A stretch of 64,000 nucleotides of DNA, from the NCBI RefSeq assembly GCF_003991155.1, contig NZ_CP031293.1; one strand, written 5' to 3'. The position numbers and the translations under genes are program-made. The notes beneath the pieces were generated by a model, which saw only the letters and a program-made list of their open reading frames with translations, was not told the DNA's origin and ran no database searches. The stretch is from Escherichia coli. Its GTDB lineage: Bacteria > Pseudomonadota > Gammaproteobacteria > Enterobacterales > Enterobacteriaceae. Below are positions 5,996 to 52,228 of the stretch, in pieces (within the stretch, counting starts at the first letter, position 1; each line of letters begins with the position of its first letter).

Positions 5996-6360
5996 TATTG
6001 GATTCTCTGCATCATGAGAAAGACAATCATGGCGGCGCGAAGGGGATTTTCATGTATAGCTCGCTTAGATTTACAGTAGGCCACACCGCGTGCACCCCAC
6101 TCGTCTTCATCGAGATTGATAATGCTAATCCTGTATTTTTCAATAATCGGCCATGAGTCTGCTGGGTTTGCGCATGGGTTAAAGGATCCGCGCTCAACTT
6201 CTACTTCAACTGCGTCTCCGTTTACAATGTCTCCCTCAAATGAGACAAACACCATATCGCCATTCTCACCTTCTTTGTAATCCGGTGATCCGTTATGAAT
6301 GGCTTCGAATACCGCCACGTTAATTTCAAAATCACTTAACTGTGAATAATCCATTGTCAT
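5995..6360 (-). CDS. Hypothetical protein inserted between ninE and ninF
   Basis: ORF with ATGA start/stop overlap to ninE; start taken at MTMDYSQ... Confidence 0.5.
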
Positions 6361-6533
6361 TTCCTCGCACGATGTCTTAGCCACCGGATATCCCACAGGT
6401 GAGCCGTGTAGTTGAAGGTTTTTACGTCAGATTCTTTTGGGATTGGCTTGCGTTTATTTCTGGAGCGTTTCGTTGGAAGGTATTTGCAGTTTTCGCAGAT
6501 GATGTCGGTGATGCTTCGTCGCTGTCGTCTCAT
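6357..6533 (-). CDS. ninE: NinE
   Basis: [58 protein letters not shown], lambda NinE-like; start at internal Met. Confidence 0.7.
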
Positions 6534-7057
6534 GCCGCCCTCCTGACGCCCTGCCCGATCGCCATCAATGCCGCTTTGGATACGGTAGTAAACATCCGTC
6601 GAGGATTGATGAACGGTCGCCAAATCAGCAGCATGGAACCTTTGCTGTTTCCCTTCTTCTCCAGCCCTGTCGATGGTTCGATAAAATTAATCCGTCCATC
6701 AGTGATGATGCGAACTTCGTCAATACTCTCCAGAGCCTTGCTGAACCATCCGACAGACATATCCTCTGGCACAAGCATCACTACCGTCTGTCGCTGTTGT
6801 ATGCACTGCTCAGCGGCTTTTTCCACCCACGGCCTGATATTGCTGTACGGTGGGTTATTCCAGATTGCACCGTGGCTTACCCACTCAGAATTGAGCGCGT
6901 CGTCGGCCTCAGTTAGCCAGTGAGCACACAGAGCATTTTTGTCGCTCGCTGCCGAATCCAGCCAGAATCCAAACTCAATATCCAGTGCATCAAAAAGCCA
7001 AAGCGGCGTTTGCCAGCAGTCCTTGTCGTGTGCTGGCGTATTTGATTTGATAGTCAT
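6530..7057 (-). CDS. Phage DNA N6-adenine methyltransferase (Dam-like)
   Basis: NPPYS catalytic motif; [25 protein letters not shown]...; ATGA overlap with ninB stop. Confidence 0.7.
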
Positions 7058-7497
7058 GCAGCCCGATCTCCCCATCTCGCTTTCCACTCCAGAGCCAGTC
7101 TCGCTTCGTCTGACCACTTAACGCCACGCTCTGTACCGAATGCCTGTATAAGCTCTAATAGCTCCGCAAATTCGCCTACACGCATCCTGCTGGTTGACTG
7201 GCCTATTACCACAAAGCCATTCCCGGCAAGGTTAGGAACAACATCCTGCTGCTTTAATGCTGCGGTAAACACACACTTCCAGCTTTCTGCATCCAGCCAA
7301 CGCCCATGCCATTCAACCTGACGAGAGACGTCACCTAAGCAGGCCCATAGCTTCCTGTTTTGGTCTAAGCTGCGGTTGCGTTCCTGAATGGTTACTACGA
7401 TTGGTTTGGTTGGGTCTGGAAGAATTTTCTGGATAGCTTGAATGGCGTTCTGCTGATGGATGGGGCTTCTTAGTTCAAACGTTAGTTTCCTCACCAT
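7054..7497 (-). CDS. ninB: NinB recombination protein
   Basis: 147 aa, near-identical to lambda NinB over most of its length as recalled. Confidence 0.85.
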   Translation of the reverse strand: MVRKLTFELRSPIHQQNAIQAIQKILPDPTKPIVVTIQERNRSLDQNRKLWACLGDVSRQVEWHGRWLDAESWKCVFTAALKQQDVVPNLAGNGFVVIGQSTSRMRVGEFAELLELIQAFGTERGVKWSDEARLALEWKARWGDRAA

Positions 7498-7641
7498 TTA
7501 CGCTCCTGTAATCGTCAAGTGCAGCTGCAATAGTCCCTATCGGGTCATGGTCTTGCCCGATAATCTCATTTACGTTTTCATCTTCTTCCACACCGAAAAA
7601 GAATCGCAGGGCTAACATGATTTCTTCGTATGCGCTCATAC

Positions 7642-7956
7642 TCACTCCTTCACTTTGACTCCAGCAGTGCGGATGGCCTCTACATCGCTTTCGTATTGTG
7701 ATTCTGCACCTGAGTCATAGCCAATGTGATAATCACCGGGAAGTGGGCCTTTCTTTGGCTTTTGCAGCTCAATTTCAATAGCTGCTCTCGATGCCTGCCA
7801 CGTTTGCCAGTGGCCTTGAACATCGTCCATCACGTATTGACCACCAATATTACCGCTGCCAATTTCATGGTGATTTTCAGGGTAACGGATAAGGTCTGAA
7901 GATTCGCCCCCACGTCGCAACCAACTTTCTTCAAACTGCTTTCTTGATTCGTCCAT
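7642..7956 (-). CDS. Hypothetical phage protein (104 aa)
   Basis: ORF in early-right operon between helicase terminator and ninB. Confidence 0.45.
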   Translation of the reverse strand: MDESRKQFEESWLRRGGESSDLIRYPENHHEIGSGNIGGQYVMDDVQGHWQTWQASRAAIEIELQKPKKGPLPGDYHIGYDSGAESQYESDVEAIRTAGVKVKE

Positions 7957-7973
7957 TGATACTTACCCTCAGT

Positions 7974-8180
7974 TCAACTCACAAAACGCCACGCCATTTT
8001 TGCTACGACAACAGGCATAACACCGATAATCACCCAGACAAATGCAGCGCCAAACAACGTATACCATGGGTCTTTACCGTCATTCACAAGACGAATGTAG
8101 CTATGCAGAACAATAAAAAACGTCAGAAGAATCCATCCAACGCCAACGCATTTGAATGCGACGAGCATAAACTCAGCCAC
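7974..8180 (-). CDS. Hypothetical small membrane protein (68 aa)
   Basis: Two predicted hydrophobic helices; ORF only. Confidence 0.35.
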   Translation of the reverse strand: MAEFMLVAFKCVGVGWILLTFFIVLHSYIRLVNDGKDPWYTLFGAAFVWVIIGVMPVVVAKMAWRFVS

Positions 8181-8193
8181 GATTTACCCTCCC

Positions 8194-8227
8194 CCAAATA
8201 AAAAGGCCTGCGATTACCAGCAGGCCT
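8194..8227 (-). terminator. Intrinsic terminator downstream of helicase gene (tR2-like)
   Basis: Perfect 8-bp stem AGGCCTGC/GCAGGCCT with 8-nt loop, followed on minus strand by TTTTTATTT. Confidence 0.55.
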
Positions 8228-8252
8228 GTTATTAGCTCAGTGATGTAGATGG

Positions 8253-9629
8253 TCATACGTCCGCCCCTTGTGCATATCGTCTGCCACGCGCAGCAGGCGC
8301 ATTTGATGCTGTGCAAATCTGTCTGGCTTCATCCTGGTCACATGCAACAAAGTGTCCGTTACAGAACCGCTGGTAAACCGTACCAAGTGAGCCAAAACGG
8401 TTTTTCGTCACGATGATTTCAGCAAATGGCGCGGCGCTACTGTTCTCGTCATATACCGCTTCCCGATAGAGCATGATGATTGAGTCTGCGTCCTGCTCAA
8501 TGCTTCCTGAATCACGCAAATCTGCGTTTGTCGGGCGTTTGTTTGGTCGCTTCTCAACATCGCGCGAAAGCTGACTCAGGGAGATAACAGGCGTTTTCAG
8601 GTCTTTCGCCATCGCCTTCAGGCTTCCGGAGATGTGAGCAATTGCGAGGTCGTTGCGGTCTGCTTTCGGCTTCTCAATCAGGCCAAGATAATCCGCCATG
8701 ATTAGAGACAGGTTTGGATTTTCCTGTTTATGCCGTTCTGCGATTGAGCGTATTTCTTCGACCGATAACCGCGAGGCATCGACTACCCATACATCCAAAT
8801 CTGCAAGCTGACTCATGCCGTTAGCAACACGCGCCCAGCCTTCGTCATCCATCGATGCAGGATTTCGCAGTACGCTAACCGACATCCTCCCGGCGTTGGC
8901 AATGCTTCGCTCTGCAATCTGCAATGCGCTCATTTCCATCGAGAAAATCAACACTCCGCGCCGGACGTCAGAACCGGGAATAACGCGGCTTGCAACGCCT
9001 TCAGCAATCTTCAGCGCCAGCTCGGTTTTCCCCATACCAGGACGAGCGGCGATAATCACCAGGTCTTCCGCGTTCATCCCTCCGGTGATGGCGTCAAGTT
9101 CTTCGATTCCGGTCTTCAGGGTATCTGACTCTTCTCCGTTCCTCAGACGCCTGTCAAGCGTGTCAGTGTAGTCAGTGATGATTTCCCCTAACCGTACAGG
9201 TTTAACCTCGTCACGGGGCTTTCTGATGGCTGAAAGACGCTTTACAAGCTCGTCCATCGCCTGACTCGATGTATCGATGGTTCCGCTCTGAATTGGTTCA
9301 CGCATTTCATCCATGATTTCCAGCACCAGACGGCGGTGATAGTTATCCGCGACCATTCCGGCATATCCTTTCAGGTTTGCGGCACTCGGGCAGTTTTTGC
9401 TGGTCATCAGGATTGACGTGAAATGCTCCTCTCCGCACGCCTCGGCAACCATCAGCGCGTCGATTAGGTTTCTGTTTCTCGCCTGCTTGCGGATAACCTC
9501 GAAGGCTTTCCGGTAGAGCGGAATTGAAAACGCTTCCGGCTCCAGTGTTGCCAGAACGTCGCTGGCGGTTGGAGTTAATCCACCAATCAGCAGACCGCCG
9601 ATAACGCTCGCTTCGATATCCTGTCTCAT
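8253..9629 (-). CDS. Replicative DNA helicase, DnaB family (phage P-gene position)
   Basis: Walker A GMGKTE, DnaB C-terminal motifs ([23 protein letters not shown]). Confidence 0.85.
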
Positions 9630-10573
9630 GCAATCCCCCTGTCTGCAAACTTCCCTTCCCGTACTCCCGTTAACGAATCTTCCCTCAGCAGGTAATCAAA
9701 ATCTGCCGTCCATCCCGTGTCGTTGTCTCCGAAGTAAAACGGCTTGGCCTGATGCACAAACGCCCTGACATACGCTCTGAAACCGTCCACGTTTGGCGTT
9801 TTCAGTTGCGGGATGATTTTCTTCAGGCGGCGTTTGCGTTTCTCGTTGACCGCAACAGCGTGTGGCAGTCTGTCACCGACTTCGGTGTTGTAAGCGTTCA
9901 GGAAGGATTCGTAGTCGATTCGTTCTGCCTTGCGACGTTCAGGTTTAACCTGCCCATCGCCTCCCCCATTGGGGGGTAGGGGGGTATTATTTATATTCTT
10001 GTTAATACCTTCTTGTTCATGATGTGCGGTTGTTTGTGCGGCTTCATGTGCGCTTTCATGTGCGGCATGTACGCTGAATGCCGCGCCATTACTGGCTTCA
10101 TCATGTGCGGCATCATGTGCGGTTGTTTGTGCGGCTTCATGTGCGGGTGAACTGTCCATTTTTTGAGCATATTCATGGTAATTTGTGATGGTTATCACAC
10201 GACCTTTTTGCTTCTCCCCATCAATGGAGATCATCCCCTCTTTCACAAAAACCTGAAGCATCCGCTCAACCTGATCACGGCTTGCCGGCTTGCCATGCCT
10301 GTCGCATAACTGAAGACCTAAATCAGCTGCTGTCACAACCAGTTGACCGGGTTGCAGATGCCATTCATGACCTTTGAAATTCGCTTTGTATGGCTTTCTG
10401 GCGGCATTCAGGAGAAGGTTTTCCCACAGGGTGCGAAGATAAACATCTTTCGCCCATGACTGTTTCAGAATGCTCCGGTACAACGGAATGTAACCAGTTT
10501 TCTGGTTCTCCATCCTGTTGCTCCTGCGCTCGTGTGCGGCGCTGAAATCGTAGATTTTTGCTGTATTGCTCAT
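9626..10573 (-). CDS. Replication initiator (O-like replisome organiser)
   Basis: Position between cII-side genes and helicase; contains internal nucleotide iterons; start overlaps helicase-side gene boundary. Confidence 0.65.
10022..10145. repeat. Iteron cluster (putative phage origin) inside the O-like gene
   Basis: 31-bp perfect direct repeat ATGTGCGGTTGTTTGTGCGGCTTCATGTGCG at 10022-10052 and 10115-10145 plus several TCATGTGCGG units; adjacent AT-rich tract at 9985-10010. Confidence 0.5.
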
Positions 10574-11458: not shown

Positions 11459-11538
11459 AGACTCGCTCCGAAATTAAAGAACACTTAAATTATCCACTAA
11501 AGGAATCTTAAGTCAAGTTTATTTAAGATGTCTTAACT
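11459..11538. promoter_or_regulatory. OR operator region between cro and cI
   Basis: Inverted repeats with TCTTAA/TTAAGA half-sites (ATCTTAAGTCAAGTTTATTTAAGAT, TTAAGATGTCTTAA). Confidence 0.45.
11488..11516 (-). promoter_or_regulatory. PR promoter
   Basis: Minus strand TTGACT-17 nt-ATAATT upstream of cro. Confidence 0.55.
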
Positions 11539-12189
11539 ATGAAAACTCAATTGATGGGAGAGCGCATTCGCGCTCGGAGAAAAGAACTCAAGATCAGGCA
11601 GGCCGCACTTGGAAAGATGGTCGGCGTGTCTAATGTTGCCATATCTCAGTGGGAACGCTCTGAGACAGAGCCAAATGGAGAGAATCTTCTCGCCCTGGCT
11701 AATGCGTTGAAGTGTTCCCCTGACTATCTGATGAAAGGAGAGGAAAGTCTTTCAAACATTGCCTATCACAGTAGGCATGATCCAAGAGGGTCATACCCTC
11801 TGATTAGCTGGGTGAGCGCAGGATGCTGGATGGAAGCTGTAGAACCATATCATAAGCGTGCAATAGATAACTGGTACGATACAACCGTAGACTGTTCAGA
11901 AGATTCGTTTTGGTTGGATGTGAAGGGAGACTCAATGACGGCTCCGGCCGGTCTCAGTATCCCTGAAGGAATGATAATACTCGTCGATCCTGAAGTAGAG
12001 CCGCGTAACGGGAAACTGGTAGTTGCAAAGCTCGAAGGAGAAAACGAGGCAACTTTCAAGAAGTTAGTTATTGATGCAGGCAGGAAGTTTCTAAAACCAC
12101 TTAACCCACAATATCCGATGATCGAGATCAACGGAAACTGCAAAATCATCGGCGTAGTTGTCGATGCAAAACTAGCAAACCTTCCATAA
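11539..12189 (+). CDS. cI: CI repressor (HTH + S24 LexA-like peptidase domain)
   Basis: N-terminal HTH (VGVSNVAISQWERSE), C-terminal S24 motifs (GDSM, K in VVAKLEGE). Confidence 0.9.
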   Translation: MKTQLMGERIRARRKELKIRQAALGKMVGVSNVAISQWERSETEPNGENLLALANALKCSPDYLMKGEESLSNIAYHSRHDPRGSYPLISWVSAGCWMEAVEPYHKRAIDNWYDTTVDCSEDSFWLDVKGDSMTAPAGLSIPEGMIILVDPEVEPRNGKLVVAKLEGENEATFKKLVIDAGRKFLKPLNPQYPMIEINGNCKIIGVVVDAKLANLP

Positions 12190-19691: not shown

Positions 19692-19883
19692 ATGACCGAT
19701 ACCAGCCTGATTCCTGAGAAAGAAGTGATGAACAAGCTCGGTGTTTCATCACGTCAGACAATCTGGAACTATACCAAACGGCACGGATTTCCGAAGCCAG
19801 TCAGAACCCACCCCAAATCATACCTTCGTGAAGCTGTTGAAGGGTGGATTCTTAACGGTGGCGTTAATCAGAAATGCTCCTGA
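19692..19883 (+). CDS. xis: Excisionase / AlpA-family DNA-binding protein
   Basis: 63 aa small HTH protein overlapping the 3' end of int on the opposite strand. Confidence 0.7.
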   Translation: MTDTSLIPEKEVMNKLGVSSRQTIWNYTKRHGFPKPVRTHPKSYLREAVEGWILNGGVNQKCS

Positions 19884-21042
19884 TGTGCCAGAACAATTTA
19901 TCAGCGTGAAGCTCATACGCTTTGCGCTGAGCCTCTATCCAGTCGTGTTTATTGTATACGGACATTATCCCGCCAAGTTCATGACCGAGCATTCGCTCAG
20001 TAACATGAGGCTCGACATTCATCTCGGACAGACGTGTAACAAGCGTTCTTCTGAAATCGTGTGTTCGCCAGTAACCTAGATCCATCCCTCCCCTTATTCT
20101 ATTTACGAATCGGTTGGCTGCAGCGATGCTGATCGGTTTGTTTATGTCTTCTCCAGGGAAAAGAACATCATTGTACGTTGTCATGGCCTTTTCGAGGAAA
20201 GGCTTAATTTGTTCGAAGATTGGACGGCGGATAGCATTACCCATCTTGCTATGCTCTTTCGGTACGGTCCATACGTTTTCCAGCAGGTCAAATTCTGTCT
20301 TTTTTGCCAGCCTAAGCTCTGAGAGCCTCGCCCCCCACAGCATAAGCATCTGATGAAGTAGCTTATTTGACGTAGACGCACGGCTTCTTTCAATAGCAAG
20401 CCAAATCTTAGCCAGTTCGTGATACGACAGTACACGATCCCCTACCTCAGCGCGGGAGCCGAAGTCCCTTGGTTGGATGCTCATAATTGCGCAACTATCT
20501 ATCAACTGACGCCGCATGCACCAACTTATTGCTGATCTTAGTTGACTTAGCACCTGCCTTGCTCGGCGTGGATTATCTCTTTCTTCTTCGGTAAGCAGGT
20601 CAACCCATTGCTTAACCGTGATAGAAGATGCCGGACGATTAGGGAAGGCGTCATGCATGCGCTTCATAACCGTTGATCGGTAAAGTGCCTGGGTCTTTTC
20701 TCTGAGAGTTGTAGAGACGTAGTTGTCGAACCAGTAGTCGAGACACTGGGCGACCGTCATGGAGTTCTCCACCTTCTCTTCAAAATAAGTGCGTGGATCC
20801 GTTCCTGAGAAATAGAGCTTTCGCAAGTCAGCAGTGATCTGTCTGGCATCCTTCAAAGACATGGATGGGTATCGACCAAGCCCAAGTCGATTAGGCTTGC
20901 CATGCCAGCGATAGCGGTACTGGAACTGGATGACCCCCTTCGGTGAAATTCGTACGCTGAGGCCATCGGCATCAGCCACTTCTTGTGGGCCCGAATATGG
21001 TTTACCATAAATAGTACGAAGTTTTGTGTCGCTTATAGCCAT
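19864..21042 (-). CDS. int: Tyrosine integrase
   Basis: 392 aa; C-terminal catalytic region HDFRRT...LGHELGG...YNKH. Confidence 0.9.
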   Translation of the reverse strand: MAISDTKLRTIYGKPYSGPQEVADADGLSVRISPKGVIQFQYRYRWHGKPNRLGLGRYPSMSLKDARQITADLRKLYFSGTDPRTYFEEKVENSMTVAQCLDYWFDNYVSTTLREKTQALYRSTVMKRMHDAFPNRPASSITVKQWVDLLTEEERDNPRRARQVLSQLRSAISWCMRRQLIDSCAIMSIQPRDFGSRAEVGDRVLSYHELAKIWLAIERSRASTSNKLLHQMLMLWGARLSELRLAKKTEFDLLENVWTVPKEHSKMGNAIRRPIFEQIKPFLEKAMTTYNDVLFPGEDINKPISIAAANRFVNRIRGGMDLGYWRTHDFRRTLVTRLSEMNVEPHVTERMLGHELGGIMSVYNKHDWIEAQRKAYELHADKLFWHIRSISD

Positions 21043-21223: not shown

Positions 21224-22648
21224 ATGACAGACACAGATAAACAACCTACCTTCCTCTTTCACGATTACGAAACCTTTGGAACGCACCCCGCGTTAGATCG
21301 CCCTGCACAGTTCGCAGCCATTCGCACTGATAACGAATTCAATGTCATCGGCGAACCCGAAGTCTTTTACTGCAAGCCCGCGGATGACTATTTACCCCAG
21401 CCTGGAGCAGTATTAATTACCGGTATTACCCCGCAGGAGGCACGGGCGAAAGGAGAAAACGAAGCCGCGTTTGCCGCCCGTATTCACTCGCTTTTTACCG
21501 TACCGAAGACCTGTATTCTGGGCTACAACAATGTGCGTTTCGACGACGAAGTCACACGCAACGTTTTTTATCGTAATTTCTACGATCCTTACGCCTGGAG
21601 CTGGCAGCATGATAACTCGCGCTGGGATTTACTGGATGTTATGCGTGCCTGTTATGCCCTGCGCCCGGAAGGAATAAACTGGCCTGAAAATGATGACGGT
21701 CTACCGAGCTTTCGCCTTGAGCATTTAACCAAAGCGAATGGTATTGAACATAGCAACGCCCACGATGCGATGGCTGATGTGTACGCCACTATTGCGATGG
21801 CGAAACTGGTAAAAACGCGTCAGCCACGCCTGTTTGATTATCTCTTTACCCATCGTAATAAACACAAACTGATGGCGTTGATTGATGTTCCGCAGATGAA
21901 ACCCCTGGTTCACGTTTCCGGAATGTTTGGGGCATGGCGTGGCAATACCAGCTGGGTGGCACCGCTGGCGTGGCATCCTGAAAATCGCAATGCCGTAATT
22001 ATGGTGGATTTGGCAGGAGACATTTCGCCATTACTGGAGCTGGATAGCGACACATTGCGCGAGCGTTTATATACCGCAAAAGCCGATCTTGGCGATAACG
22101 CCGCCGTTCCGGTTAAGCTGGTGCATATCAATAAATGTCCGGTACTGGCCCAGGCGAATACGCTACGCCCGGAAGATGCCGACCGACTGGGAATTAATCG
22201 TCAGCATTGCCTCGATAACCTAAAAATTCTGCGTGAAAATCCGCAAGTGCGTGAAAAAGTGGTGGCGATATTCGCGGAAGCCGAACCGTTTACGCCTTCA
22301 GATAACGTGGATGCACAGCTTTATAATGGCTTTTTCAGTGACGCCGATCGTGCAGCAATGAAAATTGTGCTGGAAACCGAGCCGCGTAATTTACCGGCAC
22401 TGGATATCACTTTTGTTGATAAACGAATTGAAAAACTGTTGTTCAATTATCGAGCGCGCAACTTCCCGGGGACGCTGGATTATGCCGAGCAGCAACGCTG
22501 GCTTGAGCACCGCCGCCAGGTCTTCACGCCAGAGTTTTTGCAGGGCTACGCTGATGAATTGCAGATGCTGGCACAACAGTATGCCGATGACAAAGAGAAA
22601 GTGGCGCTGTTAAAAGCGCTTTGGCAGTACGCGGAAGAGATTGTCTAA
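21224..22648 (+). CDS. sbcB: Exodeoxyribonuclease I
   Basis: 474 aa, matches E. coli SbcB throughout except first about 9 residues (MTDTDKQP here). Confidence 0.9.
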   Translation: MTDTDKQPTFLFHDYETFGTHPALDRPAQFAAIRTDNEFNVIGEPEVFYCKPADDYLPQPGAVLITGITPQEARAKGENEAAFAARIHSLFTVPKTCILGYNNVRFDDEVTRNVFYRNFYDPYAWSWQHDNSRWDLLDVMRACYALRPEGINWPENDDGLPSFRLEHLTKANGIEHSNAHDAMADVYATIAMAKLVKTRQPRLFDYLFTHRNKHKLMALIDVPQMKPLVHVSGMFGAWRGNTSWVAPLAWHPENRNAVIMVDLAGDISPLLELDSDTLRERLYTAKADLGDNAAVPVKLVHINKCPVLAQANTLRPEDADRLGINRQHCLDNLKILRENPQVREKVVAIFAEAEPFTPSDNVDAQLYNGFFSDADRAAMKIVLETEPRNLPALDITFVDKRIEKLLFNYRARNFPGTLDYAEQQRWLEHRRQVFTPEFLQGYADELQMLAQQYADDKEKVALLKALWQYAEEIV

Positions 22649-39381: not shown

Positions 39382-39544
39382 TGTATACTCCTGTCAGGGG
39401 GTGTTCACCGCCGAGTGTGCGGCTTAAATGTGGTATAGATGTTAACTCACTCATAGAGATGGTGAATAGCAGTACCTTTGCTATACCACACTGAATATCT
39501 CATCTTTTCCGTCTTTTAAAACTTATTTATATGAAATTACTGAA

Positions 39545-40915
39545 TTACTTGTTCAATAACGCAAGGATAAGTTTTGTCTTTTCTTCCATCAGCGGCACAT
39601 CACCGCGCGATTCCACATTCAGGCGCACCACCGGTTCGGTGTTGGAGGAGCGCAGGTTAAAGCGCCAGTCGGCAAAGGTCATGCTGATGCCATCGGTGCG
39701 ATCCACCGCCAGCGCCTCACGGCTAAAATGCTGTTCGACGCGATTAATCGCCTCAGCGGGTTGCGCCAGTTTGCTGTTGATCTCACCGCTTGCCGGAAAC
39801 GCTGCCATCCGGTCGCGCACCAGTTCGCCCAGCGTTTTTCCTTTCAGACACACCAGTTCGGCGACCAGCAGCCACGGGATCATGCCGCTGTCGCAGTAAG
39901 CGAAATCACGGAAATAGTGGTGGGCGCTCATTTCGCCACCGTAGATGGCGTCTTCCTTGCGCATACGTTCTTTAATAAAGGCGTGTCCGGTTTTCGACAT
40001 CACCGGTGTGCCGCCCGCGGCGGTCACCACATCAACGGTATTCCAAGAGAGACGTGGATCGTGGATGATCTTCGCGCCGGGATTTTTTTCGAGGAACGCT
40101 TCTGCCAGCAGGCCGACAATGTAGTAGCCCTCGATAAACTGCCCTTTTTCGTCAAACAGGAAACAGCGGTCAAAATCGCCATCAAAGGCAATGCCCATAT
40201 CCGCGCCGTGTTTAATGACCGCATTGCGGGTGTCGTCGCGACATTCCGGCAGCAGCGGGTTAGGAATACCGTTGGGGAAATTGCCGTCCGGCGTGTTGTG
40301 CACTTTGATCAATTCCACAGGTGCGCCGAGGGCTTTAAAGCGGGCTTCGATAGCGTCCACCACCGGACCCGCTGCGCCGTTCCCGGAGTTGATCACCAGC
40401 TTGAGCGGCGTGAGGTTTTTGACATTGATATAACCGAACAGGTGATCAACGTAAGCGTCACGCAGGTTGATTTGCTGATAGCGACCGCATTTGGTTTCAT
40501 CGACGGGAGGAAAGTCGTTGGCTTCAGCCAGACGCTGGACGTCGCGCAGTCCGGTATCTCCGCTGATCGGGCGAGCCCCCTCGCGAACCAGCTTCATGCC
40601 ATTATAATCCATCGGATTATGGCTGGCGGTAACTTCGATGCCGCCATCCACGCCGAGATGGAACGTGGCGAAATAGATCTCTTCGGTGCCGGACATGCCG
40701 ATATCCAGCACATCGACGCCCGCATCCTGTAAACCTCTCGCCAGCGCCAGTTTTAAGGTTTCGCTGGTGAGGCGGACGTCACCGCCTAACACAATGGTTT
40801 TCGGTTTGAGAAATTCGCCATAGGCGCGACCAATGCGCCACGCAATATCTTCATTCAGTTCTTCGCCTAATTTCCCGCGAATATCATAGGCTTTAAAGCA
40901 GGTTAATTTTTTCAT
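39545..40915 (-). CDS. manB: Phosphomannomutase (O-antigen cluster copy)
   Basis: 456 aa; near-identical in nucleotide sequence to cpsG at 62266-63636 except the 3' about 45 nt. Confidence 0.85.
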
Positions 40916-40939
40916 ATAAAAACCTTACCAATAATAAAA

Positions 40940-41698
40940 TTATTTATGCGCAAACAATTGCATTAGTTTTGAGATTTTTCTGATAATGATAGCAATTTTC
41001 CAATTTACATTATGGTTTTTCATAACTTCTACAATTTCCTTTGTACTTGATATCGCGTTATCAATTCTGGTACTTTCCCCACCCAATCTCATCTTTACAA
41101 ATACTTGAGGAACATAAATAACTTTAATATCATCACGTTTCAAAATCCTGACCATCTGATCATAGTCTGCAGCAATCCTATAGGATAAATCAAAATATCC
41201 ATCGTCTTTATATAATTCCCTCCTCATATAGAAAGATGGATGCGGTGGTGCCCAGCCTAATGATAGCTTAGAACGTTTAAAAGGACCACTACGCCAGTAT
41301 CGTTTGATTATATCAGTTTGGTTTTTTTCGAAAAAAACCAAATCACCGTATACAACATCCGCTTTTGTCTCATGGAAACGGCTTACAATAGTTTCAATAA
41401 TATCAGGTCTTGCTAAAAGGTCATCAGAATGAACGAATCCAATAATATCTCCCGTAGATAAATTTATACCTTTATTTAAAGCATCATAGATACCGTTATC
41501 GCTTTCTGATAGACATTTGGTTACTCTTGTTGATACTTCGTTAATTAGTTTTAACGTATTATCTGTAGAACCACCATCAATAATTATATACTCTATATCT
41601 TTATAGGTTTGCAACTCTATTGACTCTAAAGTATCCCTTAAAGTCTTTTCACTATTATAAGTCACTGTAATAATACTGACTTTCATTTTAACATCCAA
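40940..41698 (-). CDS. Glycosyltransferase family 2
   Basis: VSIITVTYNSEKTL...IIIDGGSTDNT GT2 signature. Confidence 0.75.
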   Translation of the reverse strand: MDVKMKVSIITVTYNSEKTLRDTLESIELQTYKDIEYIIIDGGSTDNTLKLINEVSTRVTKCLSESDNGIYDALNKGINLSTGDIIGFVHSDDLLARPDIIETIVSRFHETKADVVYGDLVFFEKNQTDIIKRYWRSGPFKRSKLSLGWAPPHPSFYMRRELYKDDGYFDLSYRIAADYDQMVRILKRDDIKVIYVPQVFVKMRLGGESTRIDNAISSTKEIVEVMKNHNVNWKIAIIIRKISKLMQLFAHK

Positions 41699-41769
41699 TA
41701 ATAATCATAATTAAATAACGTCAGTACAGCATTACGAATAATAATGTTGCATTAGTATCCAGCATCATT

Positions 41770-43170
41770 TTAGATTCTAACAACATCATCTTCATCCAAG
41801 TAGACACCTGAACGTACCTCAATAATCTCCAAAGGGATCTTTCCTGGATTCTCAATAAAATGAGGTACACCTATTGGTATATAAGTTGATTCATTTTCAG
41901 AAACAAGAAATATTTCATCTTCATAATGGACTTTTGCTGTTCCAGAAACAACAATCCAATGCTCAGTACGATGGTAATGAATCTGTTTAGCAGTTTTATG
42001 TCCAGGATGAATAACGACATGTTTAACCTCAAATCGAGATCCTTCCGCTATAGAGTCATGACTGCCCCATGGCCTAAATATTTCACGATGCTGCAGATAT
42101 TCCGTACGGTTATTAACCTTAAGTTTTTCTACAATATTTTTTACCTGTTGAACTTTATCTTTATGCGCAACGAGAATAGCATCTTTAGTTTCAACAACTA
42201 CTAAATCTTTAACTCCTACTACACCAATTAATCTATGTTGTGAGTAAAGATAACTGTCAGAAGAATCATGAATTAATACATCTCCTCTAATTGCATTTCC
42301 ACTTTTATCTTTTCTGCTAATTTCCCATAATGCAGACCAAGAACCAACATCGCTCCAGTGGGCATTTAATGGAACTACCACAGCCTCTGTTGTTTTCTCC
42401 ATAACAGCGTAATCAATGGATTCTTCAGGGCAACAACTAAATGAGTCATTATCTATACGGATAAAATCAAGATCTTGTGTAGAGGACTTCAATGCTTGTT
42501 GGCATATTTTTAGTATGTCTGGTCTAAATTTATTCAACTCATCAATAAACACAGAAGCCCTAAACATGAATATTCCACTATTCCAAAGATAATCTCCATC
42601 TTCAAGATATTTTTTGGCCACATCTAGCTCAGGCTTTTCAACAAAAGCAGAAACTTTAAAACCATATTCATTTAAATTTTCTCCGGTTTTTATGTAGCCA
42701 TATCCAGTTTCGGGTTTGGTTGGCACAATACCAAAAGTTACCAGCTTACCTTCCTCTGCAAATTCTTTTGCAGCCAATATTGACGATATAAAGCGCTTTT
42801 GGTCTTGTATTTCATGATCGGCTGCTAGTACAAGCAGTATTGGATCCTCACCTGATGAAATCGCTTTAAGAGCAGCAAGCGCAACTGCGGGGGCTGTATT
42901 ACGACCTATCGGCTCTAGTAAAATGCCACTATTCGCTAAATTTACATTACGCATTTGTTCTGCAACGATAAAACGATGAACTTCATTACAAATAACCAGA
43001 GCAGGACGATGTTCAACCCCTTCAAGCCTTCTTAAGGTCTCTTGTAGCATAGTCAAACGACTAGTTAACGATAGGAATTGCTTCGGATATAGTGTTCGAG
43101 AAAGTGGCCACAATCTAGTTCCAGAACCACCGGCCATTACAACAGGAAGTAGCATATAAATAACCTTCAC
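41770..43170 (-). CDS. manC: Mannose-1-phosphate guanylyltransferase / mannose-6-phosphate isomerase
   Basis: AGGSGTRLWPLSR motif, C-terminal cupin; start codon ambiguous. Confidence 0.85.
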   Translation of the reverse strand: MKVIYMLLPVVMAGGSGTRLWPLSRTLYPKQFLSLTSRLTMLQETLRRLEGVEHRPALVICNEVHRFIVAEQMRNVNLANSGILLEPIGRNTAPAVALAALKAISSGEDPILLVLAADHEIQDQKRFISSILAAKEFAEEGKLVTFGIVPTKPETGYGYIKTGENLNEYGFKVSAFVEKPELDVAKKYLEDGDYLWNSGIFMFRASVFIDELNKFRPDILKICQQALKSSTQDLDFIRIDNDSFSCCPEESIDYAVMEKTTEAVVVPLNAHWSDVGSWSALWEISRKDKSGNAIRGDVLIHDSSDSYLYSQHRLIGVVGVKDLVVVETKDAILVAHKDKVQQVKNIVEKLKVNNRTEYLQHREIFRPWGSHDSIAEGSRFEVKHVVIHPGHKTAKQIHYHRTEHWIVVSGTAKVHYEDEIFLVSENESTYIPIGVPHFIENPGKIPLEIIEVRSGVYLDEDDVVRI

Positions 43171-43622
43171 TTAAAATAATTTTTTGTGTACTGATGAACT
43201 GAGGAATTAGCTAACAATTCGGCTATATCGAACCAATTGTAAGTACTATGTTGTAGTGTTGGATAGTTAATTTGATGTGGCATCAAACTAATCTCATATC
43301 CGTGTACGACATAATGAGTTGAAAAACAAGTCCCAGAAAAATTGTCGCTGTAGAAATGTTCATAAATCCCAAGAAATTTTGCTTCATTAATGCTAATTTG
43401 AACACCCAATTCTTCTAAAGTAACTCTTTTGAATGCGTTCTCGAAAGACTCATCTTTAAGAATCCGTCCCCCCGGCACAAACCAATAATTTTGTGCTGGA
43501 CGATTAAGGCGCTGACCAAGCAGCGCCTTACCATCTTCGTTTCTTATAATAAGGTCTATCGAGATTAGTGGAGTATGTTCAACTATTGATTTAAATAACT
43601 CTGTTTCTAATCTCTTGTTCAA
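43167..43622 (-). CDS. gmm: GDP-mannose mannosyl hydrolase (Nudix)
   Basis: Homolog of E. coli Gmm/NudD (RPAQNYWFVPGGR). Confidence 0.8.
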   Translation of the reverse strand: MNKRLETELFKSIVEHTPLISIDLIIRNEDGKALLGQRLNRPAQNYWFVPGGRILKDESFENAFKRVTLEELGVQISINEAKFLGIYEHFYSDNFSGTCFSTHYVVHGYEISLMPHQINYPTLQHSTYNWFDIAELLANSSVHQYTKNYFK

Positions 43623-43624
43623 TA

Positions 43625-44590
43625 TTAACTCCTAAATGAGTCAAGATTATTTATAAACCATTTATATGTTAATTCTAGTCCTTGTTTTAAATTATAACGA
43701 TATTTCCAACCCAAATTCTCAAGGCGTGTAACATCCATAAGTTTACGAGGCGAACCATCTGGTTTTGTTATATCAAAAACAATTTTTCCATCATAGCCAA
43801 CAACTAAAGCCATTGTTTCTGCCATTTCACGTATGGAACAATCAACACCAGTACCTACGTTAATATGAGATAACATTGGTTGAGTATTTTTTTTATAAAT
43901 TTCATCATCAAGCTCCATCACATATACTGATGCAGCGGCCATATCATCAACATATAAAAACTCGCGTTTTGGAGTTCCCGTTCCCCAGACAACCACTTCA
44001 TTTAAACCAAGTTCCTTTGCTTCATGAAAACGCCGCATAAGCGCTGGAATTACATGTGAGTTATTGGGATGAAAATTATCATTCATACCATATAAGTTAG
44101 TAGGCATTACACTGCGATAATCACATCCATATTGGCGATTATAAGATTCACATAGCTTTATACCTGCTATTTTGGAAATAGCATAAGGCTCATTAGTAGG
44201 CTCAAGAGTTCCCGTCAAAAGTGCAGATTCTTTCATTGGCTGTTCTGCAAACTTTGGATAGATACAACTTGACCCTAAGAATAATAGTTTCTTTATGCCC
44301 GCTTTGTAAGATGAGTGAATAATATTGCTTTCAATAAGAAGGTTCTGATAAATAAATTCAGCTGGAAAAGTGTTATTAGCATGAATTCCTCCTACTTTTG
44401 CTGCTGCAAGGTAAACCTGATCTATTCTCTCTTGCTCAAAAAAACATTCAACATCCTTTTGAACTGTCAAATCGAGTTCTTTGTGAGTTTTGACAATTAA
44501 CTCAACATCATTACGTGCTAATAATTGACGACAAATAGCAGAACCAACCATCCCACGATGTCCAGCCACAAAAATTCGCTTCTTGGTCAT
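43625..44590 (-). CDS. fcl: GDP-L-fucose synthase
   Basis: 321 aa SDR, Fcl-like. Confidence 0.9.
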
Positions 44591-44593
44591 ACT

Positions 44594-45715
44594 TTAACGC
44601 TCCAAAGAGACTGCCACGTCAAAACCATGGCTTTTAAGAAGTGCATGCTGTTTAGCTTTTTCTAAATCACTAGCCACCATTTCTGCACACATTTCTTCAA
44701 CTGTAATCTCTGGCTCCCAACCCAAGACATTTTTTGCTTTTGTTGGATCACCAAGAAGAGTTTCAACTTCTGCTGGTCGAAAATAACGAGGGTCAACGCG
44801 AACAATAACATCACCAATATTAACACCAACGGCGCAATCTGATGTTTTATTTACAACAAATGCAATCTCATCAACACCAGTACCGGAAAACTCAAGTTCA
44901 AGTCCAACTTCTTTAGCAGACATACGGACAAATTCACGTACAGATATTTGTTTGCCGGTGGCAATAACAAAGTCTTCTGGCTGGTCTTGTTGAAGCATCA
45001 TCCATTGCATACGAACATAATCTTTCGCATGCCCCCAATCGCGTAAAGAATCCATGTTGCCAAGATATAAGCATTTTTCTATTCCCTGCGATATATTAGC
45101 TATAGCACGTGTGATTTTACGTGTTACAAACGTTTCCCCACGACGTGGGGATTCATGATTGAACAAAATACCGTTACATGCATACATTCCATAAGACTCA
45201 CGATAGTTTACAGTGATCCAATATGCATACAGTTTAGCTACGGCATAAGGTGAACGAGGATAGAACGGCGTTGTCTCTTTTTGTGGAACTTCCTGAACTA
45301 ATCCATACAATTCAGAGGTTGACGCCTGATAAAATCGGGTTTTTTTTTCTAATCCCAAAAAACGAATAGCTTCCAATAATCGTAAAGTACCTATAGCATC
45401 AACATCAGCTGTATATTCTGGGGATTCGAAGGAAACAGCTACGTGACTCATTGCGCCAAGATTATAAACTTCATCAGGTTGAACTTCAGATAATATCCGA
45501 GTCAAATTAGAAGTATCTGTTAAATCACCATAATGAAGTTGTAATTTTAAATTACGATGGTGTGGGTCTTGATATATATGATCAATACGGTCAGTATTAA
45601 ACAAGGAAGATCGACGTTTTATTCCATGAACCTCATAGCCTTTTTTAAGCAGAAATTCTGCCAAGTAGGAACCATCTTGCCCGGTAATTCCTGTAATTAA
45701 AGCTTTCTTACACAT
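44594..45715 (-). CDS. gmd: GDP-mannose 4,6-dehydratase
   Basis: 373 aa, [15 protein letters not shown] motif. Confidence 0.9.
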
Positions 45716-45725
45716 AAATAACCTC

Positions 45726-46733
45726 TCAAAACTTAGATAGTGATTTATATAGATTATATGTTTCGGAGAAACACTTCCCCCATGAAAATTTATTAGATTG
45801 CGCTAATCCTTTATTTTTTAATTCATTAGCGTTAGCTTCTACACTTAATAAAGCTGAGAATAAACTTTCAATTGATACTTCTTCGACTAAAATCGCACTA
45901 TCCCCCACAACCTCGGGTATTGATGATCTATTTACGGCTATCACAGGACAGCCAGTTCGCATAGCCTCAAGCAAGGGAATTCCAAACCCTTCATATTCTG
46001 AAGGATAGATTAAGCAATAAGCCGAATTATATAATATATTTAGTTTTTCATTTGATACCTTCCCTAAGTACTGGAATCTTTCTGGAAGATATTCAGATAG
46101 TAACTTCATTTCTGCTTTATTTAAACCACCTCCGCCGACTATTTTAAGATTAGTATCAAAAAGTTTAGAAATGGCTTTAACTGCAAGCTCAAAATTTTTA
46201 TATCCTGAACGAGCACCGACAAAAAGCACAAAATTTTCTTTTTCTAGATTTAAGTGTCTATAATCTTCCGATACACCATTATGAATAACATGTATCTTTT
46301 TTTCATCAACCTTAAAGAAATTAATTAAATCCTTGGCTGTATTATTAGAGACACAAATGATTGCATCGCTATGTTTCACAGCCCATCTTTTTTGTAAGCT
46401 ATGAACATTGCGCCGAAGTCCTTTCATATACAATTCATATGTGAAATCGTGGACCGTGGTCACAACCGCATATTCCCCATCTTTCGGAACCCGATAATAT
46501 GTAGAATGAAATATACTGTAATCTGAATCACTTTTTAATGCTTCAAAACATCTATATCGTTCTAAAAACCGGCATGGCCGATGGAGATCATCATTGTGAT
46601 TTTCATTTTTATCATTAAATTGAATGAACTTGTATTCGTCATTTTTTAATCTCTTAATGATTTCTTCAAAGTATACAGTGATACCACCATATGATTGTAA
46701 ACTTTTCACAATCCCATCATATAATATTTTCAT
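45726..46733 (-). CDS. Glycosyltransferase family 1 (GT4-like)
   Basis: [19 protein letters not shown] motif. Confidence 0.75.
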
Positions 46734-46801
46734 TTTTTGTTTTCATATATATAGATAACAATACAGTAAGCAATGAAATGGATGATTATAATTGTTTCAA
46801 T

Positions 46802-47818
46802 TTACTCTTTATATCCATTTGGATTCATTGTTTGCCATCTCCATGCATCTTCCACCATATTATTAAGAGTCCTTTTAGCAACCCAACTTAGCTGCTCGTT
46901 TGCTAAGGAAGGATCGGACCAACATTCAGCCACATCTCCATTTCGCTCAGAAACGATACGGAAAGGTATATCGCGTCCTGTTTCCAGTTTAAAAGCGTCG
47001 ATGATATCTAACACACTATAACCTTGACCAGTGCCTAAATTAAAAACTTTAAGCCCCTGGTTTCTATTGAGATTTTTTAAAGCGGCAAGATGCCCCTCAA
47101 CTAAATCGACTACATGGATATAATCTCTTACACCTGTTCCATCTTTTGTCATATATTTATTACCAAAAACATTTAGATAGGGTAATTTTCCAATTGCGAC
47201 TTGCGCAACATAGGGAAACAGGTTATTAGGAGTTCCTAAAGGATCTTCTCCAATTAATCCAGTCTCATGAGCACCTACAGGATTAAAATATCTTAGTATT
47301 GTGATATTTGCGTCGCTATTCGCGTTACAAAAATCACGCAATATATGTTCCACCATAAACTTTGAACGACCGTACGGATTGATCACCTCACCGACAGGGT
47401 GTTTTTCAGATATTGGAACATAATGAGGATTGCCATAGACAGTAGCAGACGAACTAAAAATTAGATTAGAAATATTCGCTTTCTGCATTTCATCAAGTAA
47501 TATTAGAGTCCCCAAAAGATTTGTGTCGTAATATTCTAATGGTTTTTTAATGGACTCGTTAACAGATTTTAAACCCGCAAAATGCATTACAGTAGAAACA
47601 TTATATTTTGAAAAGATATTTTTTAATATATGTCTATCTCTAATATCACCACGTAATTTTTTTATCTTAGATAAGCAAATTTCCTCTACTCGTTCTAGAG
47701 ATTTTGGAGAGGAATTGCAATAATTATCTAGCGATATAACATCATATCCATTTTGCAATAAAGTTAATATAGCATGTGAGCCAATATAGCCAGCCCCACC
47801 AGTCACAAGTATGCTCAT
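46802..47818 (-). CDS. gne: UDP-sugar 4-epimerase (GalE/Gne family)
   Basis: TGGAGYIGSH Rossmann motif, YGRSK catalytic motif. Confidence 0.8.
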   Translation of the reverse strand: MSILVTGGAGYIGSHAILTLLQNGYDVISLDNYCNSSPKSLERVEEICLSKIKKLRGDIRDRHILKNIFSKYNVSTVMHFAGLKSVNESIKKPLEYYDTNLLGTLILLDEMQKANISNLIFSSSATVYGNPHYVPISEKHPVGEVINPYGRSKFMVEHILRDFCNANSDANITILRYFNPVGAHETGLIGEDPLGTPNNLFPYVAQVAIGKLPYLNVFGNKYMTKDGTGVRDYIHVVDLVEGHLAALKNLNRNQGLKVFNLGTGQGYSVLDIIDAFKLETGRDIPFRIVSERNGDVAECWSDPSLANEQLSWVAKRTLNNMVEDAWRWQTMNPNGYKE

Positions 47819-47838
47819 ACTTTAATAGCTCCAATACC

Positions 47839-48906
47839 TTAATTTTCTTGACTATTGGCTCGATTGATCAAACTCATCCACTGAGCACTAACTATTTCTT
47901 CTGTATAATGTCTATTCACGAATAGGAATCCTGCATTTCCGTGTTCGGTTCGTTTAACATTATCTTCAAAGTAAGTTAGTTTTTCCTGAAATTCAATTTG
48001 AGATTGACACACAAATCCGCCACCCGATGAAGAAATCACGCTACTTGTCCCTCCAGATATATCCATTGAAATTACAGGTAATCCGTAGGACATAGCTTCA
48101 AGTATTGTAACAGGAAAACATTCAAAGTATGAACCGGATACAAAAACATCACTTTTTGCCAAAAAAACATCTGTGTTTAAACTCGGTCCATGAAAGTGTA
48201 TTTGGTTGTTATTCTTATATTTAGATTTGAGATACTCCAGCTCTTGACCACCTCCTACAATGTGTAAAACATACTTTTTTGTAGACGGGTGATTTATTAC
48301 TGCATTAATTAACCTTTCAACTCCTTTATCTTTAACAATCCGACCAATATAAATCAAATCAAGAGTTTCTTTTCCTTGATGTATGCGCTTATATTTTTGC
48401 GTTTTGATTGAATTTGGTATAATTACAACCCTTTTACAAAAAGTAAACTTATCTTTTTCCTTGTGAGAATTACAAACTACTACAGCTTTTTTATTAAGAG
48501 ACAAAAGAAATTTAAATACTTTTCTCCAAAAAATACTATTCTTGTCAAATGGATAATGTTCCCAGCAAATAATTTTATTCTTATTATACCGAAAAAAACC
48601 AATCAATAACAATAATGATGATGTAGCTATATCCGTGGAAATTATTAATTCAAGGTCTTTACTTTTGGCACTCAAAAAAAACAAATATTTAATGTAAAAC
48701 CTTAATTTGCTTTCTTCATATGCAGTATTGTCTTGGAATAAGTAGGTTTTCCGATTATCTTCTCTAACTTGTATCTCTTGTGCGTTTATTGCTGAAAAAC
48801 ATCTCACTTGTAGGCTGTTTTTAGTTAATATATCAATTAGATTTTCAACTGCTTTCTCAGTGCCACCTATTTTATTTTCATACAGCTTAAAGACTCCAAT
48901 GGACAT
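47839..48906 (-). CDS. Glycosyltransferase family 1
   Basis: EAMSYGLPVIS motif. Confidence 0.7.
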   Translation of the reverse strand: MSIGVFKLYENKIGGTEKAVENLIDILTKNSLQVRCFSAINAQEIQVREDNRKTYLFQDNTAYEESKLRFYIKYLFFLSAKSKDLELIISTDIATSSLLLLIGFFRYNKNKIICWEHYPFDKNSIFWRKVFKFLLSLNKKAVVVCNSHKEKDKFTFCKRVVIIPNSIKTQKYKRIHQGKETLDLIYIGRIVKDKGVERLINAVINHPSTKKYVLHIVGGGQELEYLKSKYKNNNQIHFHGPSLNTDVFLAKSDVFVSGSYFECFPVTILEAMSYGLPVISMDISGGTSSVISSSGGGFVCQSQIEFQEKLTYFEDNVKRTEHGNAGFLFVNRHYTEEIVSAQWMSLINRANSQEN

Positions 48907-48907
48907 T

Positions 48908-50143
48908 TTATTGACTCACTCTTATATATTCTGCTGATTTAACTTCTTTATTGAATAGGAATAATGAGGGCTTATACAATATATCGCACCAAGACACATA
49001 AATAATATCTTTACCCATATTTGCCTGTGCCAAATTTATGATTGAACATGCGGTAATGAGTATTAAGAAGATCAGATGCTTACATAGTTTGCTAATTTTA
49101 TTAATATCGTAGGAGAAAAATATATAACTATATAATAACACCCAGAAAATGGAAAATCGATAAAATAAATCAGGCGATAACGATAAAAGGCATATCAGCA
49201 AAAGAAGTAAACTGCAAAAATTTTTGATTTGTGACTCTTGCCTCGTCATTTTTTTATTAAATAAAATTAAATAGATAAAAGTAAAAATAAAAAACACTGA
49301 CGGTAATATGATCTTATTCAAGATATATTCATTAGTGCTCAGCAAGCTATTGCTTATGCCTATGGTTACAGAGTCCATATATTCGGGAAAGTAAAAACCT
49401 AAGCTTTCCAATAATGGCCTAATCAATTGAAATAGCAAAGAAGATATTAACCCATCATGGTTAAGGATTAGAACTAATATTATTAAATACAATATTGTTT
49501 TGTTAAGTCTTATTAATTTGCTAACAAAAAAAACACCTAGCAATAGTATTGCGCTGGGATGAATACAACATGAAATAATTGCAGAGAATATAATTTTTTG
49601 TGACTTATACCTATTATTTTCACTGGTGAAATACTGTATAATCATATAAAGCATAATACTAAATGCAAGATATTGCCGCAATGAACTAGCTATAGCAAAA
49701 AATGGGATTACGCTTATTAGAATATATAAATATATACATCTATGAGATAATTCCGGATTGTATTTTTTAATGTAATTAACATATATATTAAAATAAAAAA
49801 TATATGATAAAAATGTTGAAAAAAAAGGTAAAAATTCTTTTTTTATTCCTAAAGATTTAAATAAATAAATAACAGTATTTATTGTAATATATCTATTGTC
49901 ACTATTTTCAAAAACTTTGTTTAGTGATGTTTGACTAACATATAAATATGTTTCATAATGCCTAGTCAAATCCCAATTTTCATAAGGTATTAACAAAAAT
50001 GCTAGTACCCCTAGCATAAATGAACATACATAAACACTCCATCTGGCCCCATTAATCATTTCAATCATTGCTAATAATAAAGCAAGAGGCAAATAAATTA
50101 TTGAAATAAATGAAGCACTAATTTTTATGTTTCTATTAATCAT
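48908..50143 (-). CDS. wzy: O-antigen polymerase
   Basis: 411 aa polytopic membrane protein, very AT-rich. Confidence 0.65.
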   Translation of the reverse strand: MINRNIKISASFISIIYLPLALLLAMIEMINGARWSVYVCSFMLGVLAFLLIPYENWDLTRHYETYLYVSQTSLNKVFENSDNRYITINTVIYLFKSLGIKKEFLPFFSTFLSYIFYFNIYVNYIKKYNPELSHRCIYLYILISVIPFFAIASSLRQYLAFSIMLYMIIQYFTSENNRYKSQKIIFSAIISCCIHPSAILLLGVFFVSKLIRLNKTILYLIILVLILNHDGLISSLLFQLIRPLLESLGFYFPEYMDSVTIGISNSLLSTNEYILNKIILPSVFFIFTFIYLILFNKKMTRQESQIKNFCSLLLLLICLLSLSPDLFYRFSIFWVLLYSYIFFSYDINKISKLCKHLIFLILITACSIINLAQANMGKDIIYVSWCDILYKPSLFLFNKEVKSAEYIRVSQ

Positions 50144-50865
50144 CTTTTTATAACTTTTCTCATAAATAGGTAAATATCTGCTAACGCCGCATATAATTTC
50201 CCGTTTCTTTTCTTTCGGATTTGTCTCGCTTCCTCCAATGCTAATTTTACATTTTTAGCGCTAAGGCCGGCATTTCTCATCGAAGAGATATTTTTATCAA
50301 TATAATGAAAGATATAACCTTGTTTCTTCAATTTTAGCAAAAGATCATAATCAGAAGCAATTTTATAGCTAGTATTAAATAAATTTTCTCTGTGGATATC
50401 TTTTCTAATAAATGTGGCCGGATGGCTTAAATTCATATCTATATGTAGTTTCCAGTCTTTAGGCCTCCGGACCTGAATAACATCCAAGCTATCAGCCTCT
50501 ACCAAAGACATATTTCCATAAATAACATCATATTTATTTTCTTTCATTACTTTTATTACTTGACATAATACATCTTTATTATAAAAATCATCAGCGTTTA
50601 TAAATCCTATATAATTTCCAGATGCTTTTAACACACCTTTATTCATTGCATCATATATACCATTATCATTTTCAGAAATGATATATGAAATTTCATTTTT
50701 GTAAGAATTAACAATATTTAGAGTATTATCCGTTGATGCACCATCAATTATAATATATTCAATGTCATCATTGCAGTTTTGTGATAAGACACTTTTTATA
50801 GTATCTTCGATATACATTTCGCCATTGTACACAACGGTAACTATTGTTAAAGTTGGTTTATTCAT
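50140..50865 (-). CDS. Glycosyltransferase family 2
   Basis: LTIVTVVYNGE...IIIDGASTDNT. Confidence 0.75.
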   Translation of the reverse strand: MNKPTLTIVTVVYNGEMYIEDTIKSVLSQNCNDDIEYIIIDGASTDNTLNIVNSYKNEISYIISENDNGIYDAMNKGVLKASGNYIGFINADDFYNKDVLCQVIKVMKENKYDVIYGNMSLVEADSLDVIQVRRPKDWKLHIDMNLSHPATFIRKDIHRENLFNTSYKIASDYDLLLKLKKQGYIFHYIDKNISSMRNAGLSAKNVKLALEEARQIRKKRNGKLYAALADIYLFMRKVIKR

Positions 50866-50873
50866 TGTTAGCC

Positions 50874-52109: not shown

Positions 52110-52189
52110 AACGAGCCTACGTACTTAACAAGTCTTATTTTGCACGATAGTTTACAATTTGTTAAGTAATATGGGATAAACATTTAATT

Positions 52190-52228
52190 CACGCTACCGC
52201 CCCTGGCTCAACAGCTACCAGCGTACTG
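52190..52228 (-). promoter_or_regulatory. JUMPstart element with ops (GGCGGTAGCGTG)
   Basis: Minus strand CAGTACGCTGGTAGCTGTTGAGCCAGGGGCGGTAGCGTG upstream of wzx. Confidence 0.6.

Follow-up and report, generated by a model that had tools for sequence, protein, structure and literature searches.

An orphan phage adenine methyltransferase, probably directed at GATC, between ninB and ninE of an Escherichia coli prophage

The window, that is the whole stretch of 64,000 nucleotides of Escherichia coli DNA analysed here, begins with a prophage (positions 1-21100) whose nin region carries, at 6530..7057 on the minus strand, a coding sequence for a phage N6-adenine DNA methyltransferase, assigned from the open reading frame and its translation of 175 aa. 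Its 175 codons run from the ATG at 7057-7055 to the TGA stop at 6532-6530 and contain no internal stop. The strand had not been given in the sequence-only reading of this locus. The upstream neighbour is ninB, encoding the Orf recombination mediator (7054..7497, minus strand; PF05772, 8e-54), and the downstream one is ninE (6357..6533, minus strand; PF05322, 7e-44), and these Pfam identifications bear out the position between ninB and ninE that had been claimed from the sequence. 3' of ninE follow NinX, NinF, NinG, NinH, a NinI-type phosphatase and then Q. On the coding strand, the tetranucleotide ATGA joins the ninB stop to the methyltransferase start (7054..7057, minus strand) and the methyltransferase stop to the ninE start (6530..6533, minus strand). 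The overlaps previously noticed on both sides can thus be read directly at these positions, but they are not peculiar to this gene: the same ATGA arrangement is present at five junctions of the operon, the others being ninE/ninX, ninG/ninH and ninI/Q. According to PMC8022706, lambdoid nin regions generally have such overlaps, which are not informative about the methyltransferase gene in particular. An alternative GTG start at 7117, which would give a 195-aa product, was rejected in favour of the ATG at 7057, because the protein begun there matches the family models from their first position and because orf32 of VT2-Sakai has the same length of 175 aa. A GGAG lies 10 nt upstream of this ATG.

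Two family models match the protein over practically their whole length, PF05869 ('Dam'; 1.6e-64, 217.1 bits against a cut-off of 28.1, model positions 1-167 of 169) and the NCBIfam equivalog TIGR01712 ('phage N-6-adenine-methyltransferase'; 1.3e-79, 265.5 bits against a cut-off of 97.05, model positions 1-165 of 165), with scores far beyond what chance would produce. The protein also matches phrog_111 ('DNA methyltransferase', 3.2e-87), and its best PADLOC model is 'orphan methyltransferase' (2.3e-19). The catalytic motif IV, N68-P69-P70-Y71 (6845..6856, minus strand), is recognized both from the sequence and from family conservation; S72 follows it in the translation, which confirms the NPPYS motif described before. 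The segment D34-S-A-A-S38 (6944..6958, minus strand) corresponds to a conserved D-x-A-A-S where the first beta strand, residues 31-34 of the structural model, ends; it is presumed to be the SAM-binding motif I, a role suggested by its position in the fold. Residue conservation was deduced from an alignment of 57 diverse family members, in which T17, D34, N68, P70, R122 and F125 are invariant and P18, A37, W59, P69, Y71, L95, W104, N137 and S141 are conserved in at least 90%. All these residues are found in the window protein, as are the five conserved blocks WxTP, D-x-A-A-S, NPPY, GRIxF and GNxKGS.

This very large family has matches in 8723 clusters (50% identity, E <= 0.001), and by tblastn the methyltransferase finds a counterpart in 1898 phage records. 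In some database proteins of 500-690 aa (P0138, P0139, P0144, P0147, P0154, P0243), a PF05869 domain about 50% identical to the window protein forms the C-terminal end only, fused to a further N-terminal region. In several E. coli entries (P0002, P0014), the methyltransferase is joined to NinE or NinB in one protein, probably through a frameshift or a wrong gene call at an ATGA overlap. As for the genes beside the methyltransferase, identified by Pfam as those of NinB, NinE, NinX, NinF and NinG, no cognate restriction endonuclease was found among them; the enzyme is an orphan and not a component of a type II restriction-modification system.

With orf32 of VT2-Sakai (AP000363, 16434-16961), likewise of 175 aa, the window protein shares 173 of 175 residues (99%). 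Together with the full-length PF05869 and TIGR01712 matches, this supports the earlier identification of a phage adenine methyltransferase. The two substitutions, I112V and N151S, are conservative and located outside the conserved blocks, and the two genes differ by 6 synonymous and 2 non-synonymous nucleotide changes. orf32 also lies between homologues of nin146 and nin60 (ninB/ninE) with the same 4-nt overlaps. The prophage of the window differs from VT2-Sakai in that it is not an Stx phage, no space being left for stx between Q and the lysis genes. We take orf32 to be M.EcoVT2Dam; the AP000363 record notes it as 'similar to DNA methylase'. PMC6602927, citing Radlinska & Bujnicki 2001, gives M.EcoVT2Dam of prophage VT2-Sa as an orphan GATC m6A methyltransferase. 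The window protein would be expected to carry out the same GATC N6-adenine methylation, as reported for this 99% identical enzyme.

More distant members of the same family are the methyltransferase of phage T1 (ST20) and the orf13 product of Haemophilus phage HP1, with 34% and 38% identity respectively over nearly the whole protein. Both enzymes keep the WxTP, DxAAS, NPPY, GRIxF and GNxKGS blocks, and both are known as GATC methyltransferases. HP1 and VT-2 are listed in PMC7556043. In other respects these systems differ from that of the window. T1 is a virulent phage, whose enzyme is longer than the window protein by about 45 residues at the N-terminus and by an insertion, whereas HP1 is P2-like and carries its gene at the end of the early operon, not in a nin region. 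A term search of PMC3299994, an article on non-specific adenine methyltransferases (Hia5 and relatives), gave no mention of PF05869, VT-2, HP1 or phage T1.

The 175-aa protein is predicted to adopt the class I SAM-dependent methyltransferase fold. Structural matches to the model include PCIF1 (score 11.3), M.BseCI (9.8), M.TaqI (9.7), MmeI (9.6), E. coli Dam (9.3) and T4 Dam (8.5), all of them with at most 17% identity. The model consists of a single domain without a separate target-recognition domain, and the enzyme would thus be a bare catalytic domain. This feature distinguishes it from canonical Dam, whose catalytic domain contains an inserted target-recognition domain. E. coli Dam, T4 Dam and DpnM (PF02086, alpha class) have in common with the window protein the reaction and the reported target, GATC m6A, as well as the class I fold and the (D/N)PPY catalytic loop. 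Only about 105 residues align to the structures 2ore, 1q0s and 2dpm, at 8-11% identity, and a Pfam scan at E <= 0.01 returned PF05869 alone, without any PF02086 match. The relationship of the window protein to host Dam therefore does not extend beyond the common methyltransferase fold: the term 'Dam-like' used in the sequence-only reading is appropriate for the reported GATC specificity, but not as membership of the host Dam family. In the PDB, sequence searches with the single protein and with the 57-sequence profile found no relative; the only hits, to SdiA and Med31, were discarded as chance matches, that to Med31 arising through the string WCNPPYS.

Copies of the gene with a nucleotide identity of at least 95% occur in 244 phage records, where the annotation nearly always places them between NinB and NinE, and in 1565 of the 5426 complete E. 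coli genomes (about 29%). Its carriers among the phage records include Stx1 and Stx2 converting phages, SfI, Sf101, HK140, mEp043, IME10 and lambda-like environmental isolates. In lambda, the slot of the methyltransferase is occupied by ninC and ninD, so that the methyltransferase gene represents one known alternative module of the mosaic nin region. It had been described as inserted, which is correct relative to lambda, but in hundreds of other phages it is the usual occupant. The NCBI pipeline names it 'phage N-6-adenine-methyltransferase'. The gene is known already, is very common in phages and occupies its habitual position; it has little weight as a discovery, being routinely annotated and having a 99% identical copy, M.EcoVT2Dam, that was reportedly cloned and characterised in 2001.

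The prophage resembles IME10, HK544 and CUS-3. At the head of the operon containing the methyltransferase gene lies a pR-like sigma-70 promoter (11489..11516, minus strand, 10/12 consensus match), whose assignment as pR is suggested by lambdoid gene order. It is adjoined by a divergent cI-type repressor gene (11539-12189, plus strand, HTH_3 and Peptidase_S24 domains), which is intact. Between the DnaB-like helicase gene and the nin genes, in a tR2-like position, a consensus scan revealed a strong hairpin followed by a T run (8204..8227, minus strand; 8 pairs, 6 of them G-C; tail TTTTATTT), also visible in the junction sequence, which probably acts as an intrinsic terminator; promoter and terminator calls are consensus matches only. 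The consensus scan found no promoter-like site belonging to the methyltransferase gene itself. Taking lambda delayed-early expression as the basis of analogy, the gene would belong to a delayed-early pR operon, and its expression would be lytic, dependent on antitermination and silent in the lysogen. The presence of a tR2-like terminator upstream and of an intact cI repressor both point to such expression in lytic growth and to none in the lysogen.

Three ORFs of 68, 104 and 56 aa are located between the terminator-like hairpin and ninB (7475-8180, minus strand). They gave no Pfam match but belong to the conserved families of unknown function phrog_1165, phrog_343 and phrog_1603; of the three products, that of 68 aa is strongly hydrophobic and has the look of a small membrane protein. 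At the other end of the nin region, just 3' of Q, the minus strand carries a promoter-like site (3706-3678) and, no more than about 35 nt further on, a strong terminator-like hairpin (3644-3616). By analogy, the segment 3616-3706 reproduces the arrangement of lambda pR' and tR', the putative target of Q antitermination.

The prophage part of the window is poor in GATC. It contains 41 of these sites, an observed/expected ratio of 0.39 by Markov estimate, or a depletion of about 2.5-fold, versus 0.83 in the chromosomal part, and none occurs in the 3.2 kb from 7066 to 10228, which cover ninB, the three small ORFs, the helicase gene and part of O. The enzyme would thus find few targets in its own genome, which is awkward for a purely protective role. 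E. coli has its own Dam, which methylates GATC. In this species about 99.9% of GATC sites are methylated (PMC6602927, Table 4), and Dam is not distinguishable from its prophage homologues by SMRT sequencing (PMC6602927). Because the host already methylates GATC, the methylomes of a lysogen and of a cured strain would be alike in a dam+ host whatever the activity of the phage enzyme. The sequence-only reading proposed that the lack of a methylation difference attributable to the gene between such strains would speak against it; in a dam+ host this outcome would be a false negative. For another phage enzyme, a dam-minus background has been combined with DpnI and MboI digests (PMC7556043).

We consider it highly probable that the gene encodes a small orphan phage GATC m6A methyltransferase, equated with M.EcoVT2Dam, which would act after induction and complete the methylation of phage DNA. 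Judging from the fold, the binding site of SAM would be D34-x-A-A-S, where strand 1 ends, and N68-P69-P70-Y71 would receive the flipped adenine. The methyltransferase would be read through from ninB via the ATGA stop/start overlap on the delayed-early pR transcript, and would not be produced before induction or infection, at which stage N-type antitermination operates. It would probably serve to complete GATC methylation of the rapidly replicating phage DNA, and progeny would leave fully methylated. Such DNA would be resistant to endonucleases that cut GATC but not its m6A form, and would escape nicking by MutH, which acts at unmethylated or hemimethylated GATC. In virions of lambda and P22, host Dam leaves the DNA undermethylated (PMC8022706). 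A role in completing progeny methylation is plausible, and it is this biological role that we infer.

It is less likely, and in our opinion rather doubtful, that the enzyme is a timing or quality-control factor for phage DNA transactions and not a simple anti-restriction device. In that case, the few remaining GATC would be methylated during lytic growth, shielding from MutH the intermediates of recombination-dependent replication made by the operon neighbours NinB/Orf and NinG/Rap; the phage DNA might also be marked for a step specific to the phage. Such a function would account for the fact that a phage depleted in GATC, in a host endowed with Dam, keeps a second GATC methyltransferase, and does so in about 29% of E. 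coli genomes.

Other explanations are to be weighed against that of a lytic enzyme completing phage DNA methylation. An expression in the lysogen leading to epigenetic reprogramming of host genes, as for PamA of S. aureus, seems very improbable here. S. aureus is not known to possess a host Dam. PamA, carried by the S. aureus prophage mPhi11, is likewise a prophage-encoded orphan with an NPPY motif near residue 65 and a GATC target, and it alters host virulence gene expression (PMC12435837, PMC13076061), which shows that prophage Dam-like enzymes can act epigenetically. Unlike the enzyme of the window, it does so in a host without Dam, whereas E. coli possesses Dam and the GATC sites of a lysogen are already methylated to about 99.9% (PMC6602927). 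The absence in the consensus scan of a promoter-like site of its own, and the location of the gene in a putative cI-repressed pR operon, behind a terminator-like hairpin, also argue against a PamA-like role.

Even less credible to us is a specificity other than GATC, relaxed or different, or an RNA substrate. The 99% identity to an enzyme reported to be GATC-specific is hard to reconcile with another DNA target. As for RNA, a protein likewise annotated 'adenine methyltransferase' in lambdoid E. coli prophages, M.EcoPA8orf6770P, does methylate 16S rRNA, but it is a different protein, which belongs to MT-A70, carries DPPW, is encoded at the gp5 locus near the other prophage end and needs the partner PNB-2 (NAR 2023, PMC10810198). 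This Stx-phage rRNA methyltransferase was ruled out as the gene of the window, whose product displays NPPY, not DPPW, and has no MT-A70 match in Pfam; PCIF1 apart, all other top structural matches are DNA m6A enzymes. Finally, an inactive remnant carried in the mosaic nin region is the least probable of these explanations. The reading frame is full-length, every invariant and nearly invariant residue of the family is kept, the differences from VT2-Sakai are mostly synonymous (6 against 2), and copies with at least 95% identity persist in 244 phage records and 1565 of 5426 E. coli genomes. In favour of a remnant, lambda can do without its nin genes when grown in the laboratory (PMC8022706), and the host already supplies the same activity.

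Opposite the methyltransferase and ninE, an antisense ORF of 174 aa (6399-6923, plus strand) matches phrog_37455 ('unknown function') over its full length with 2e-118. It was rejected as a gene on account of 5-10 stops in divergent homologues (Salmonella phage MS2 LVA, T1, HP1). Judged by these stops, it is an artefact of annotating near-identical sequences, and phrog_37455 looks like a collection of wrong-strand gene calls.

The host flank of the window is E. coli chromosome, with the prophage adjoining sbcB. A site-specific integrase gene (19864-21042, minus strand) forms the prophage end, directly beside sbcB (21224-22648), an arrangement encountered in 505 complete E. coli genomes. On the chromosomal side, sbcB is followed by tsuA/tsuB, according to the annotation of matching genomes, and beyond them by ORFs whose sizes fit the his operon, gnd and an O-antigen cluster. 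The region 39500-52200 has a G+C content of only 35%.
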